From positions 34,030-98,029 of the forward strand of contig CALMJK010000016.1 of assembly GCA_937864225.1 (NCBI GenBank): DNA of 64,000 nucleotides, given 5' to 3'. The position numbers and the translations under genes were made by a program. Each line of letters begins with the position of its first letter. Within the stretch, counting starts at the first letter, position 1. The notes under the pieces were generated by a model. That model saw nothing but the letters and a program-made list of their open reading frames with translations. It was not told the origin of the DNA and searched no databases. The stretch is from an uncultured bacterium (GTDB taxonomy: Bacteria > Krumholzibacteriota > Krumholzibacteriia > LZORAL124-64-63). Positions 5,316 to 27,530 of this stretch are shown here, one piece after another.

Positions 5316-5753
5316 TTGCCCATGCCCGCCCTGGGTCTGATAGCGCTGGCCACCGGGCTGGTCGCCCAGGTGTTCAAGATGCTTCTGCTGTCGGCGCGCA
5401 CGCGACGCCTGGATCTCTCCGCGCTCGCCGCCACCGGCGGCATGCCCAGCTCACACACCGCAGCGGTCACCACGCTGGCACTGCTGGTGGGGGAACGGTC
5501 CGGGTGGGCCTCCTCCATGTTCAGCGTCGCCATCGTCTTCGGCCTGTACGTCGTGTTCGAAGCGACCGGGCTGCGACAGGAAGTCGGCAAACAGGCCCGC
5601 CTGCTCAACGACCTGGTCGAGCAGTACCGGCTCACGCACGCCCTGGACAGGTCGCGGCTGCGCGAGCTGACCGGGCACACCTGGGCCGAGGTGGCGGGAG
5701 GCTTCCTCTGCGGCGTCGGCGGCTGGCTGGTGGGCCGGGCGCTCCTCGCCTAG
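5316..5753 (+). CDS. Divergent PAP2-family membrane protein (DUF212/YuiD-like)
   Basis: This is a small membrane protein with a GGMPSSHTA motif typical of the DUF212 acid-phosphatase-related family. A good RBS (GGAAGGGG) lies upstream. Confidence 0.55.
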   Translation: MPMPALGLIALATGLVAQVFKMLLLSARTRRLDLSALAATGGMPSSHTAAVTTLALLVGERSGWASSMFSVAIVFGLYVVFEATGLRQEVGKQARLLNDLVEQYRLTHALDRSRLRELTGHTWAEVAGGFLCGVGGWLVGRALLA

Positions 5754-5777
5754 GCGCGGCGCCCGCCGCGATTCTGC

Positions 5778-5805: not shown

Positions 5806-5926
5806 CTGGCATTTGGCCTCGGTGGGGCGGAGGGAGCCGCCGCCGCCGGTGGCGGTGAAACGGAGGTGGTCGGCGGGTCCGCGCCCGCGGACGGCGGGCA
5901 AGCCGATCAGAAAGGACGGGGTCATG

Positions 5927-6997
5927 AGGATCATTGCCCTGGCCAACCAGAAGGGTGGATGCGGCAAGACCACGGTTGCCACGAACTTGGCGGCGGCGCT
6001 GGCGCAGCTCGGCAAGCGCGTCCTGCTCATCGATAACGACCCGCAGGGGCATGCCACGCTCGCGTTCGGTTTCGGCGAACGCGATTTCTCGCTGAGCACC
6101 TACGATCTCTATCTCACCACGGACATTTTGGTGGAGGACGCGTTCCTCGAGGTCGCGGGGGGCCTGCATCTGGTGCCCGCGGGCATCGAGTTGAGCGCCG
6201 TGGAGCAGGCGCTGGCCCGCGAACCGGAGAAGGAGCAACGCCTCCGGAAGACCTTGCGGCGGTCGGCGCTGCCTTACGACATCGTGCTGATCGATTGCCC
6301 GCCGAGCGTGGGCCTGCTCACGTTCAACGCGTTGCTGGCCTGCGGGGAGGTCGTCGTGCCGGTCGACGCCAGCACCCAGAGCCTGCAGGCCGTGCGCAAA
6401 TTCCGCGAAACGCTGGCGGTTCTGCGGGAGAAGCGGGGACACGACGTCCTGCCGCACGTCCTGTTGTCGAATTTCGACCCGCGTCCGCGGTTTGCGCGCG
6501 GATTGTCGGGAGAACTGGGAGAACAGCACGGCGACGTTCTGCTCGAGACGATCGTGCACCATACTGTCCGCCTGAAGGAGGCCGCCGCGGCAGGCGTGCC
6601 GGTGGCGCTCTTCGATCCGGGCTCGCGCGGCAGCCTCGATTTCCGCCTCCTGGCCGAAGAATTGGTGGCGAGACAGGTCACGCTGGGCGTGCCCGACCTG
6701 GACCGGTGGGCCGAACTGCTGCACGGTCCGCAGATCACGCCCGAGGGAGTCTGTTTCGCGGGCCGCTTCCCCCGCGCGGCCTCGGTGCGCGTGACCGGAT
6801 CCTTCAGCGGCTGGAGCGCGGAGGGCGTGCCGCTGCATCCGGGGCCCGACGGGCGCTGGGAGACCACGCTCCCGCTGTCGCCCGGCCGGCACGAGTATCG
6901 TTTCGTGGTCGATGGCCAGTGGCAGACGGACCCGGAGAACCCCGAGAGCATCGCCAACGAGTTTGGCGGGCGCAATTCGCTCGTCACGGTGCCCTGA
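5927..6997 (+). CDS. ParA/MinD-family ATPase fused to a C-terminal CBM48/AMPK-beta glycogen-binding domain
   Basis: The N-terminus has the deviant Walker A motif KGGCGKTT and the fold of Soj/ParA. The C-terminal 90 aa (RVTGSFSGWSAEGVPLHPGPDGRWETTLPLSPGRHEYRFVVDGQWQTDPENP) matches the AMPK1_CBM/CBM48 signature. A strong RBS precedes the ATG at 5927, and the listed ORF start at 5153 is an upstream artifact. Confidence 0.8.
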   Translation, partial: RIIALANQKGGCGKTTVATNLAAALAQLGKRVLLIDNDPQGHATLAFGFGERDFSLSTYDLYLTTDILVEDAFLEVAGGLHLVPAGIELSAVEQALAREPEKEQRLRKTLRRSALPYDIVLIDCPPSVGLLTFNALLACGEVVVPVDASTQSLQAVRKFRETLAVLREKRGHDVLPHVLLSNFDPRPRFARGLSGELGEQHGDVLLETIVHHTVRLKEAAAAGVPVALFDPGSRGSLDFRLLAEELVARQVTLGVPDLDRWAELLHGPQITPEGVCFAGRFPRAASVRVTGSFSGWSAEGVPLHPGPDGRWETTLPLSPGRHEYRFVVDGQWQTDPENPESIANEFGGRNSLVTVP

Positions 6998-7871: not shown

Positions 7872-8203
7872 CAAGTCCGGACCAATTCGTCCAAGTCGGA
7901 CTGATCGAGCCCGGTCCGTTGCGTGAGGACTTCCGCCGCTTTCTGGCGCTGGCCCGAGACCTCGGCCCCGAGGTGACGCTGCGGGAGGAACCGTTTGTCA
8001 TCGTGCTGGAACGCGATGGCGCGCCGCTGTTGCGCGCCCGGCTCGCAGCCCGTCAGGTGCAGATGCTGCTGGGAGCGCAAGGGAACGCGGTCGTGGAATG
8101 TCGCCACCACGAGGATTTCGTGGGCGTGCTGTCGTGGCTTCTGGAGGGCGAACGCCGCCGCATGGGCGCCGCGTTGGCCGACTCCGGAACCGCCTGGGCA
8201 TGA
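7868..8203 (+). CDS. Hypothetical small protein, translationally coupled on both sides
   Basis: The start ATG at 7868 overlaps the upstream stop (ATGA), and its own stop overlaps the WaaL-like start at 8200 (ATGA). Confidence 0.35.
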   Translation: MTSPDQFVQVGLIEPGPLREDFRRFLALARDLGPEVTLREEPFVIVLERDGAPLLRARLAARQVQMLLGAQGNAVVECRHHEDFVGVLSWLLEGERRRMGAALADSGTAWA

Positions 8204-9597
8204 ACCCGCCCGCCGGTGCCGCCGACGCGACGGGCGCACGGCCGCCTCGGCTGGCGGAAATCCTCTGGGGGGCAGCGCTCGTCAGCTTGGCTTGGGTCGG
8301 CGTCGATCCCGTGGCGCTGGCCACGGGGCGTGACCTGGGGGCGGGCTTCCAACCCTCCTATCTTCTCCTGGCGGGCGCCATCTGCGCCTGGATTCCCTTC
8401 GGGAGCCGCGGCGCGCGGGCGAAGGTGTGCCGGCTTGCGGCCTGGCAATGGTTCGCGCTGGTCGGCTTGGTGGTCGCCCTCGCCTCCGGCGCTGGTCTTT
8501 TCTTGGCGCCGCCGCCGGGTGTCGCGCTCTCGGCGCGCATGATGCGATTTGTCAAACAAATTGTCCAATTGATTGTCATGATATCTTTTATGTCATTTAC
8601 GATTTACTGGACGCGCGGCGCCGGGCGCTGGGCGCGGGTGCGCGATCTGTTCGGCGTGGGCTGCGCGATCCAGATCGCCTGGGGCCTGACCCAGGCGGTG
8701 ACCTTCGGGCACGCGCCGGGCTGGTTCGTGGCTGCCGAGCGGATCGCGACCTCCAACCCCAGCATCCTTTCCGGGTCCGGGGAACTCTTTCTGGGCGGCG
8801 TCTTCACGGGGATTCCCAGGGTGCGCGGCACCGTCTGCGAACCGCTCTATCTGGCCAACTACGCCTTGTTGGCCCTGCCCGTGCTGCTGTTGCCCGGCTC
8901 GCGGCGATGGCAGCGGGCGATCGCGTGCGGCGCGGGAGTGCTGCTGTTGCTGAGCTGGTCGCGGGGCGCTTGGCTGGCCGCGGTCGTGGGGGTGGGGGTA
9001 TGGGCCGCGCTGGCGGCGCGCGCCCGCTGCCTGCCCCGCCCGGGCCGGCGCTGGTGGGCGCTGGTGGTGGTCCTGGTCGTCATCGCCGTGACGGCGGCCG
9101 CGCTGCGTCCCGATCTCGCGTTGCTGCCGGGCCGGCGATTGCTGCAGGTCTTCAATCGCGCCGATTGGTCGAACCTGACGCGGTTCTACTCCATGCAGGC
9201 CGCCTGGCGCGCCTGGCTGCTCAGCCCGTGGCTGGGGGTGGGCTGGGGTCAGTTCGGGTTCCACTTCCCCGCGCTTGCGGACCCCCTTGGACTGCAAAGC
9301 CAGTTCTCGTGGCCGGTCGTCAACAATTTCCCGCTGGCGATCCTGTGCGAGACGGGTCTGCTCGGGTTCGGCGTGCTGGCCGCGGCGGGCGCCTGGCTGG
9401 CACGGGCCAGTTGGCGCGCCGTCCGCACAGGCGCCGGCAGCGCGGCCGCGGGACGCGTGGCGCTGCTGGCGGCAGGCACGGCGGCGGTCTGGTCGCAGTT
9501 GCTGACGTTCTCGCAGTACAACTTGCCTCACATCTGGGTGGCGCCGGGTCTGCTGCTGGCCGCCTTGGCCGAGGCGCGAGAGGACCGGCATGGCTGA
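8200..9597 (+). CDS. O-antigen ligase family membrane protein (WaaL/Wzy_C-like)
   Basis: It is a multi-TM protein with the SRGAWLA motif and a periplasmic loop typical of Wzy_C. An AT-rich codon island sits inside the gene at 8538-8610. Confidence 0.6.
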   Translation: MNPPAGAADATGARPPRLAEILWGAALVSLAWVGVDPVALATGRDLGAGFQPSYLLLAGAICAWIPFGSRGARAKVCRLAAWQWFALVGLVVALASGAGLFLAPPPGVALSARMMRFVKQIVQLIVMISFMSFTIYWTRGAGRWARVRDLFGVGCAIQIAWGLTQAVTFGHAPGWFVAAERIATSNPSILSGSGELFLGGVFTGIPRVRGTVCEPLYLANYALLALPVLLLPGSRRWQRAIACGAGVLLLLSWSRGAWLAAVVGVGVWAALAARARCLPRPGRRWWALVVVLVVIAVTAAALRPDLALLPGRRLLQVFNRADWSNLTRFYSMQAAWRAWLLSPWLGVGWGQFGFHFPALADPLGLQSQFSWPVVNNFPLAILCETGLLGFGVLAAAGAWLARASWRAVRTGAGSAAAGRVALLAAGTAAVWSQLLTFSQYNLPHIWVAPGLLLAALAEAREDRHG

Positions 9598-23792: not shown

Positions 23793-24722
23793 GTGAGCAC
23801 GCTGCTGGTCGTCGGCTACAATGCCTGGGACGTGATCGTGCCGCTGCCGGCGCTGCCCGCGTCCGACACCAAGCTCGAAACGCCGGGGCTGCTCACGGGG
23901 GGCGGTGGACCGGCGGCCACGGCGGCGGTGGCGCTGGCCCGCCTGGGGGCGCAGGTCCGCCTGGTCACGCCGCTGGCGGACGATCCCCCGGGGCTATCGC
24001 AGCGGCGCGAACTGCAAGCGGCGGGCGTCGACTTGTCGCTCAGCCCGACACGCGCGGGGGCTGCCTCGCCGGTCGCCGTCATTCTCGTGGAGCCGTCGGG
24101 AGCGCGCACGATTCTCTGGCGGCGCGGCGGTTTGCCGGGCCTCGCGCCGGCGGAGACGGCGGCGGCTTGGCTCGATGGCGTCGACGTCCTGCTGTGCGAC
24201 AGTCACGAGCCCGCGGCGGCGGCGGCGCTGGCGACGGCGGCCAGGGCGCGGGGCGTGCCGGTCGTGCTCGACGGCGGCACGGCCCGTCAGGGCTTGGCGG
24301 AACTGGTGCCCCTGTGCGACGACGTGATCGCCTCGTCCGTGTTCGCGCCGGCGCTCACGGGTGAGCGGGATCCGATCGCCGCGCTGCGGGCGTTGGCGGC
24401 GCGGGGCCCGGCGCGGGTGGCGATCACCTATGGGTCGGCCGGCTGCCTGGCCTTGGCCCAGGACGCGCCGTTCCACGTGCCGGCCTTCGACGTGCCGGTG
24501 CGCGACACCACGGGCGCCGGCGATGCGTTCCACGCCGGGTATGCGCTGGCGCGCGCCGAGGGGCGCCCTTTCGCCGAGAGTCTGGCGTGGGGCAGCGCCG
24601 TGGCGGCCCTCAAGTGCCGGGATTGGGGCGGGCGCCGCGGCCTGCCGACCCGTTCTGAAGTGGAGGCCTTGCTGCGGGATGGATGTCGGCGAGCCGAGCG
24701 CCCGCCCTCCGGAGGCAGCTGA
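23793..24722 (+). CDS. PfkB-family carbohydrate kinase (ribokinase-like)
   Basis: Glycine-rich N-terminal motifs and a C-terminal DTTGAGDAF anion-hole motif identify the family. Confidence 0.8.
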   Translation: MSTLLVVGYNAWDVIVPLPALPASDTKLETPGLLTGGGGPAATAAVALARLGAQVRLVTPLADDPPGLSQRRELQAAGVDLSLSPTRAGAASPVAVILVEPSGARTILWRRGGLPGLAPAETAAAWLDGVDVLLCDSHEPAAAAALATAARARGVPVVLDGGTARQGLAELVPLCDDVIASSVFAPALTGERDPIAALRALAARGPARVAITYGSAGCLALAQDAPFHVPAFDVPVRDTTGAGDAFHAGYALARAEGRPFAESLAWGSAVAALKCRDWGGRRGLPTRSEVEALLRDGCRRAERPPSGGS

Positions 24723-24744
24723 GCGGAAATTCTGTTTTTTTGCC

Positions 24745-24774
24745 TTGGATTTTCGCCTATTTTTCGCTTAAACT
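24745..24774 (+). promoter_or_regulatory. Candidate lexA promoter (TTGGAT-18-TAAACT) with embedded direct repeat TTCG-N7-TTCG (possible LexA operator)
   Basis: The region lies in a T-rich intergenic stretch 45 nt upstream of lexA. The direct repeat sits at 24752-24766 within the spacer. The operator assignment is inference only. Confidence 0.3.
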
Positions 24775-24818
24775 GACCGAGCGCGGCAGCCGGGCCGCGT
24801 GGAACAAGGGAGGCGCCC

Positions 24819-27428: not shown

Positions 27429-27501
27429 TCTGATCCCTTCGGGCGCGACGGCGCGATTCTAGAGACACCCTCCCCAGGCGTCAACGCGGGCGCGGGGGCG
27501 G

Positions 27502-27530
27502 TTGACGGGGGCGCGGATGGCCGGTACCAT
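27502..27530 (+). promoter_or_regulatory. Candidate promoter TTGACG-17-TACCAT upstream of hsp20
   Basis: The hexamers were read directly and lie about 45 nt upstream of the Hsp20 start. Confidence 0.45.

Follow-up and report, generated by a model that had tools for sequence, protein, structure and literature searches.

A/T-rich clusters of rare codons in a WaaL-like ligase gene and in polA of a GC-rich uncultured bacterium

The 64,000-nucleotide (nt) stretch of DNA analysed here, referred to below as the window, comes from an uncultured member of the Krumholzibacteriota (GenBank assembly GCA_937864225.1, contig CALMJK010000016.1, positions 34,030 to 98,029), in agreement with its closest homologues, and has an overall guanine-plus-cytosine (GC) content of 70.1%. 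A gene on its forward strand (8200–9597), predicted to encode a membrane protein of the O-antigen ligase family (Wzy_C, WaaL fold), contains a 24-codon island of rare, A/T-rich codons at 8539–8610 on the same strand, MMRFVKQIVQLIVMISFMSFTIYW, which encodes most of a predicted transmembrane helix. A second island of this kind, LSFVIVTNDSDLRAYIHSLPE, is present in polA, the gene encoding DNA polymerase I, at 62454–62516 (forward strand). The ligase island is a genuine, in-frame part of a homologous coding sequence, its codons are rare, this rarity is conserved by position, and both synonymous sites and the amino-acid sites that tolerate change are shifted towards A/T. The best explanation, which we hold tentatively, is that selection maintains a cluster of rare A/T-rich codons at this particular position, with locally slow translation and/or weakly structured mRNA as the result. 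The anomaly is best filed as an unusually stark case of an already known class, the conserved rare-codon clusters.

The ligase island runs in frame from ATG ATG CGA to TAC TGG within a 465-codon open reading frame (ORF), and its GC content is 0.31 over 72 nt, versus 71% for the host gene. The lowest GC content of any 60-nt segment of the window, 0.25, is found at position 8547, within the island, and the window contains only three spots in which GC content falls below 0.45: 8525–8623, around the ligase island, 24711–24788, which is intergenic, and 62440–62523, in polA. GC content at third codon positions (GC3) is 0.46–0.50 in the ligase island and 0.90 over the whole gene; 13 of the 24 codons end in A or T, whereas 51 of the other 441 codons of the gene do so (11.6%; binomial P=4.8e-7). 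An earlier reading of this DNA made from its letters alone (the sequence-only reading) had described a switch to low-GC codons with an intact frame, and the sequence, the ORF and the GC profile bear this description out. Its statement that ATT, ATA, TTT, CAA and AAA are essentially absent elsewhere was overstated, these codons being rare (0.7–5.5 per 1000 codons) rather than absent. One alternative sense frame across the island is also open and encodes an unremarkable peptide, and another has three TGA stops.

The rarity of the codons is extreme for several of them: in the window, TCA occurs 0.6 times per 1000 codons, ATA 0.7, TCT 1.5, AAA 2.1 and ATT 2.9 times, and TTA, at 0.1 per 1000, is found only once among 12,288 codons, in the polA island. 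Rarity was scored as %MinMax over spans of 17 codons, with the window's own codon table, values below 0 indicating codons rarer than the synonymous average. %MinMax falls to -40 in the ligase island and to -50 in the polA island, and these are the sole negative spans of the two genes; negative values are found in 0.45% of the 11,856 spans in the long ORFs of the 64-kb window. Both islands are, thus, rare-codon clusters, as defined by a %MinMax below 0. Amino-acid content can be ruled out as the cause of the low GC3, because GC content at first and second codon positions (GC12) and GC3 are uncorrelated (r=0.03) over 3000 coding segments of this genome stretch, and segments with a GC12 below 0.4 keep a mean GC3 of 0.889; a low GC12 does not, therefore, lower GC3. 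The ligase island is also the weakest-folding stretch of the ligase mRNA, with a 60-nt folding energy of -7.3 kcal/mol, versus a gene mean of -24.5 kcal/mol. No tRNA gene was found within the window.

The 465-residue host protein matches the Pfam family PF04932 (Wzy_C) with an E-value of 1.2e-15 (58 bits, versus a cutoff of 31.7), and its AlphaFold model (mean predicted local distance difference test score, pLDDT, 86.7; predicted template modelling score, pTM, 0.90) has the O-antigen ligase WaaL (7TPG) as its best PDB match in Foldseek (E=1.3e-5, template modelling scores of 0.56/0.63). No NCBIfam model matches this protein. By sequence and by predicted structure, it belongs to the O-antigen ligase/Wzy_C family, and it may act as a glycan ligase or as a polymerase. 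The description of the gene as WaaL-like in the sequence-only reading is, thus, in agreement with both the Pfam score and the closest solved fold, and so is its prediction of a transmembrane helix: the island corresponds to residues 113–136 of a single long helix, helix 4 of the model, extending from residue 109 to residue 136 with pLDDT values above 90. The repeated ATTGTC/TTGTCA units that were also reported do exist, but in a corrected form, as three TTGTC units with an exact 12-nt spacing. This motif, TTGTC-N7-TTGTC-N7-TTGTC (8549–8577, forward strand, with units starting at 8549, 8561 and 8573), occurs once in the window, and the probability of such periodicity arising by chance is 0.003 in mononucleotide shuffles and 0.01 in codon shuffles. 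Each unit coincides with a [Phe/Ile]-Val codon pair, and these pairs lie along a single face of the helix, at positions i, i+4 and i+8; we read the motif as arising incidentally from the periodicity of the helix together with the A/T-rich codons.

The island has been assembled repeatedly. No fewer than 10 contigs carry it, with identical flanks; they derive from samples ERZ781239, ERZ781243 and SRR5468104/108/109 (at least five in all, probably belonging to one study) and were assembled with two pipelines, those of ENA and Logan. Two haplotypes can be distinguished, with three differing sites in 21.4 kb; in the 19.6 kb that they share with the window, the only difference is a natural A/G polymorphism at position 8583 (forward strand), inside the island, where the codon is either ATA (Ile) or ATG (Met). 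The chance of one haplotype difference landing in the 72-nt island is about 1%. The GATATC palindrome noted in the sequence-only reading is consequently a feature of one natural allele and is missing from the other. The abrupt change in composition might suggest an assembly chimera or a sequencing artefact, another explanation that had been put forward, but the recovery of the same junctions in all these assemblies, the existence of two alleles one base apart, and the intact frame with all the residues that are invariant in the family refute this explanation as far as assemblies can show, and leave it with a practically negligible probability.

The comparison with homologues of the ligase covered 31 proteins and 66 gene sequences, including 41 high-GC genes, one of which is the window's own (40 homologues); individual relatives are designated below by working labels, such as L005. 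The ligase of the window has no relative with a protein identity above 57% in the databases searched. The island is nevertheless in register with its counterparts in all 31 proteins and 66 gene sequences, without insertions or deletions; it encodes a conserved polar helix pattern, R-x-x-K-Q-x-x-Q-L-x-x-M, and none of the residues that are invariant or nearly so in this segment (R115, Q119, Q122, M126, F129 and W136) has been lost. The equivalent 24 columns have an average GC content of about 63% in high-GC homologues, with a slightly reduced GC3, and this value is low for the gene because of the K, Q, I, M and F codons of the segment. The gene-wide GC minimum lies at the island position in 17 of the 66 homologues (11 of the 41 high-GC genes), and the gene-wide %MinMax minimum does so in 10 of the 41 high-GC genes, a count that takes in the gene of the window (9 of the 40 homologues), where about 5% would be expected (P=5e-5, uncorrected for phylogeny). 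Clear islands, with a drop in GC content of at least 0.18 and a lowered GC3, are present in three clades: the window's species, L041/L003 and L067/L072/L054/L081. Weaker islands are found in L007, L009 and L032, which belong to the same clade as L041/L003, and the island of the window is by far the strongest, and has the lowest GC12, among the homologues. Codon rarity, thus, recurs at the homologous position more often than expected by chance, as in a conserved rare-codon cluster, albeit not in the two nearest sampled relatives of the ligase, L005 and L077 (52–55% identity by alignment), which have no synonymous signal. Weaker A/T-rich versions of the island occupy the same codons in two other clades.

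A separate pattern is visible in the alignment of the 40 high-GC homologues (L003–L083). GC3 is lowest mainly in columns of invariant residues with two-fold degenerate or Gly codons, for example H367 (CAT in 45%), N198 (AAT in 42%), D373 (GAT in 50%) and G204 (GGT/GGA in 52%), and strictly conserved ligase residues therefore tend towards A/T-ending codons throughout the gene.

The polA gene (61464–64000, forward strand, identified by translation) runs past the end of the window, and its homologues carry the domains PF02739, PF01367, PF01612 and PF00476. The sequence-only reading had mentioned an island of the same kind in this gene, and its existence is confirmed. It is located at the start of the 3'-5' exonuclease domain, right after a Pro/Ala-rich linker, and begins about 36–55 codons past the end of the 5'-nuclease domain. 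Its GC content is 0.35 and its GC3 is 0.29, versus 0.88 gene-wide, and 16 of its 21 codons end in A or T, versus 10% (P=1.4e-12). The island has been kept at the same codons in all five of the nearest polA genes with DNA sequences (L086–L089 and L173, 57–65% identity), in each of which it constitutes the gene-wide GC minimum, with a GC content of 41–48% and a GC3 of 0.43–0.48, versus 0.83–0.95 for the gene; the %MinMax minimum lies at the island, or no more than 13 codons from it, in L086–L089, but not in L173. The polA island, like that in the ligase, qualifies as a conserved rare-codon cluster. The island is missing from two more distant Krumholzibacteria-like polA genes (L174 and L175) and also from 19 metagenome-derived high-GC polA genes belonging to other lineages, which rules out a general trait of polA in GC-rich bacteria. 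Between the closely related genes L086 and L087, divergence is 2.2-fold faster in the island than over the gene on average, and the substitutions go in both directions; it is, therefore, the composition that persists, and not the sequence. Synonymous sites should be saturated at 57–65% identity, which argues for selection or a persistent local force rather than a recent event.

Three other features of polA were noted in passing. In L175, the codons GTT TTA are found at the beginning of the segment equivalent to the island (about positions 1291–1305), despite the absence of an island from this gene, and they may be what is left of an earlier one. The ExoI motif of the PolA protein encoded in the window (62535–62546) reads A-T-E-D, whereas D-T-E-T or something close to it is present in all 59 of the other homologues listed, out of 60; the first catalytic Asp of the 3'-5' exonuclease site has been replaced by Ala, which suggests that this DNA polymerase I is proofreading-deficient. 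The PolA proteins of this clade (61464–62450 in the window; P0123–P0140 among the homologues) have an unusually long, low-complexity linker rich in Pro, Ala and Glu, which separates the 5'-nuclease domain from the exonuclease domain, adjoins the island on its upstream side and ranges in length from 40 to over 100 residues. The longest one seen, in P0133, has well over 100 residues.

According to the explanation favoured here, the cluster would have been retained, and intensified in this lineage, in the segment encoding the conserved polar helix of a WaaL-fold ligase or polymerase, and selection would target local composition or codon rarity rather than a sequence motif. Ribosomes would slow down over about 24 codons when reading ATA, TCA, TCT, AAA, ATT, TTT, CAA and CGA (0.6–5.5 per 1000 codons), and the mRNA along this slow stretch would be only very weakly structured. 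In the ligase, the pause would occur during the synthesis of helix 4, as the transmembrane helices made before it leave the ribosome and insert into the membrane; in polA, it would occur just after the emergence of the complete 5'-nuclease domain and the linker. Given this timing, it may be proposed that the islands tune co-translational insertion or folding, or the level of expression.

Several observations weigh against this explanation. Selection on speed need not shift amino-acid positions, and yet the GC12 of the ligase island is 0.23, versus a median of 0.50 in the high-GC homologues; in polA, the GC12 of the island is 0.44, versus 0.61 for the gene, and the equivalent segment has a GC12 of 0.61 in other high-GC lineages and of 0.42 in low-GC genomes. 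A helix proline conserved almost throughout the family has been replaced by threonine in this lineage, a change more like drift than tuning. The extreme state of the ligase island is specific to this lineage, the nearest sampled relatives having no synonymous signal, and could be the result of a separate event; in addition, the homologue counts given above ignore phylogenetic non-independence. Because the A/T shift at amino-acid positions is not needed for the tuning of speed, an element read as nucleic acid stays a contender, and the probability of the signal being read at this level is not trivial. Both islands would then be A/T-rich DNA or RNA elements of about 70 bp, in frame and read by composition, with the protein sequence bent to fit: a site of duplex melting or bending or of nucleation of an AT-preferring nucleoid-associated protein, at the DNA level, or, at the mRNA level, an unstructured site where an RNase, Rho, S1 or a small RNA could land. 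They would have been held at about 35–45% GC over deep time, against the GC pressure of the genome, forcing replacements in the helix and in the first exonuclease element of PolA. We regard this alternative as possible, but doubtful. It is consistent with the A/T shift of all three codon positions, as far as the invariant residues permit, and with a polA island resembling a genome of about 45% GC (GC3 of 0.29–0.48) inside genes with a GC content of 64–73%; composition is conserved while sequence turns over, the islands are both sharply bordered and of similar length (63–72 nt), and the ligase island folds more weakly than any other part of its mRNA. AT-preferring nucleoid proteins binding across GC-rich chromosomes, such as Lsr2, are known (PMC6584129). 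However, the two islands have no motif in common, no promoter is conserved on either strand, no candidate binding protein has been identified, and such an element would be expected in the intergenic A/T-rich regions that are available rather than in coding sequence. Such islands are also rare: the 64-kb window has two in coding sequence, and the 300 kb surrounding the ligase locus in high-GC relatives contain no coding island with a GC content below 0.40. At the RNA level, no Rfam family scored above its gathering threshold in the window, the sole weak hit (E=1) lying outside the island; the fold of the ligase island has a z-score of -1.97 (sense strand) relative to shuffled sequences, versus -1.25 to +0.67 in relatives, which have different folds, and no fold is common to the ligase relatives and the polA islands. 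The A/G polymorphism at 8583 would turn a predicted A-U pair into G-U, in a hairpin that is marginally better than those of shuffled sequences and is not shared. If this alternative were true, a non-coding signal would dictate protein sequence, overriding the constraint of coding.

A neutral patch out of equilibrium in this lineage, generated by a short import from a low-GC homologue (by gene conversion or transformation) or by a burst of G:C-to-A:T mutations, tolerated and now ameliorating, is unlikely. It would fit with the sharp borders, with non-conservative replacements such as that of the helix proline, and with an extreme value of 31% GC observed only in this species, and the GC12 of the island equals that of a low-GC member of the family, L027 (0.23). 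The sole polymorphism in 19.6 kb lies inside the island and its ATG allele is the GC-richer one, as expected for a fast-evolving patch out of equilibrium. However, the island coincides with a family-wide minimum of GC content and codon rarity and with moderate islands in two other clades, its twin in polA is ancient and maintained, and many coding segments with a low GC12 keep a normal GC3, which argues against a general local mutational runaway. By eye, none of the homologues inspected matches the island peptide much better than the overall identity of about 50%, and searches of phages and plasmids revealed no similar DNA, with matches only at chance level (E of about 0.7–0.8). A word-indexed search for a donor of the island peptide (41-residue query) returned no candidate, the source protein included, and an exhaustive search of representatives at 50% identity yielded two unrelated weak matches. 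Although these donor searches are weak, the proposal by the sequence-only reading of a recombination patch from a low-GC donor is unsupported: the island is in register and keeps its invariant residues, other clades have islands too, and the polA twin is old. An intragenic promoter of the sigma-70 type, in sense or antisense orientation, or an operator for a specific regulator, is less probable still. A/T-rich DNA in a GC-rich genome is promoter-prone, and both islands contain palindromes (CAATTG, TCATGA and TTTG-N5-CAAA in the ligase, AGTCACT-N6-AGTGACT in polA), but these palindromes are common neither to both islands nor to relatives, and GATATC is specific to one allele. A scan for sigma-70 promoters only (-35 and -10 hexamers with a 16–18 nt spacer) revealed one antisense match in the ligase island (TGGACA-17-CATCAT, 9/12) and no sense-strand match; scanning of five polA islands gave a single marginal match (8/12, antisense, in L089 only), with nothing conserved, and the polA island sequence evolves rapidly. 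Genuine promoters in this DNA have near-consensus hexamers, TTGAC-N17-TAnnAT, in a GC-rich context. These weak or marginal matches leave the intragenic promoter suggested in the sequence-only reading without support, as far as sigma-70 is concerned.

Some other candidates were rejected. The insertion of a repeat or mobile element can be discarded, since there is no insertion or deletion relative to homologues and no tandem array within the island (Tandem Repeats Finder), and an internal translation start, from an in-frame ATG or TTG, producing a truncated ligase or a Klenow-like PolA, is rejected because no conserved start codon or Shine-Dalgarno site at a fixed position was seen by eye in the alignments of relatives. 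Similarity among the three A/T-rich spots of the window does not exceed the level expected by chance. A comparison by eye gave no convincing match to dif, Ter, parS, IHF, DnaA, Fur or LexA-like motifs.

The conservation of codon rarity by position, rather than of codon identity, has been described before (Chaney et al. 2017, PMC5438181). Like the conserved rare-codon clusters detected with %MinMax (Clarke & Clark; PMC5438181), the islands consist of a negative %MinMax run of about 20 codons, with rarity kept at homologous positions, and known clusters are frequently located inside domains or in between small structural units, where they have been proposed to tune co-translational folding. Unlike these clusters, the islands described here are also shifted towards A/T at non-synonymous positions, hence the drop in raw GC content to 31%, their strength varies greatly between lineages, and they are known from the sequence of an uncultured organism. 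Fluman et al. in 2014 reportedly described pauses in the targeting of membrane proteins that are programmed in mRNA, are located near the start of the gene, ahead of the emergence of the second transmembrane helix, and depend on Shine-Dalgarno-like elements rather than on rare codons. The ligase island resembles these pauses in that the mRNA of a polytopic membrane protein would itself specify a slowdown, presumably so as to coordinate insertion, but it is located at codons 114–137 (helix 4) and has no Shine-Dalgarno-like element, and its polA twin is in a soluble protein. In GC-rich Streptomyces, bldA control involves single TTA codons and a developmentally regulated tRNA; nearly unused codons could likewise tie expression to scarce tRNAs here, but the islands are clusters of 21–24 codons including many different rare ones. 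Nucleoid-associated silencers of GC-rich bacteria, such as Lsr2 and MvaT, recognise short A/T-rich stretches by composition (PMC6584129, PMC4466236). The ligase island, unlike the regions bound by these proteins, is native, homologous coding sequence for a conserved helix. Regions bound by silencers are usually longer and have often been acquired horizontally. Mosaic genes produced by short-patch import contain a sharply bounded patch of deviant composition within a native gene, as is the case for the ligase island; unlike such imports, this island has no donor that the weak searches could find, weaker islands are present at the same codons in other clades, and it has a conserved counterpart in polA.

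In a genome with a GC content of 70%, rare-codon clusters appear as raw A/T-rich islands, and the two islands may, thus, be a natural case in which selection for local codon rarity or composition can be seen with unusual clarity. The same polA codons are A/T-rich in six species of an uncultured phylum despite sequence turnover, and the same tendency is seen in three clades at the helix position of the ligase. If the pausing of translation proves to be the correct explanation, these genes could serve to test how elongation rate bears on membrane insertion and domain folding, the sister lineages supplying natural "recoded" controls. For annotators and for users of detectors of horizontal gene transfer or chimeras, the islands call for caution, as short A/T-rich patches in GC-rich metagenome-assembled genomes can be native and conserved.

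The ligase gene belongs to a glycan operon of overlapping genes, with GT4 and WecA-like glycosyltransferase genes downstream. Three genes upstream of it, at 5924–6997, a ParA/MinD/BcsQ-like ATPase is fused to an AMPK1_CBM (glycogen-binding) domain, and the two hypothetical proteins encoded between this ATPase and the ligase in the same operon (289 and 111 residues) have no Pfam or NCBIfam match. Further upstream, about 1.6–2.7 kb from the ligase gene, many high-GC relatives (L031–L076) have an A/T-rich intergenic promoter region of 70–160 nt, with a GC content as low as 0.28, and several of the upstream regions displayed have TTGACA/TATAAT-like boxes. No such region is present in the window's species, in which the inspected segment (5560–5760) has a GC content of 74%.

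Near-consensus promoters of the sigma-70 type are found elsewhere in the window, at 14138–14170 (TTGACC-N17-TATAAT), 19240–19270 (TTGACC-N17-TACCAT) and 27500–27530 (TTGACG-N17-TACCAT), and they are accompanied by Shine-Dalgarno sites of the GGAGG type. Judging from these sequences, this member of the Fibrobacteres-Chlorobi-Bacteroidetes (FCB) group seems to use classical expression signals rather than those of the Bacteroidetes type. The third A/T-rich spot, at 24711–24788, has a 60-nt GC minimum of 0.38; it is T-rich and lies between two genes of the same strand, followed by a GGGAGG Shine-Dalgarno site and an ATG, and it is probably a promoter or a 5' leader.

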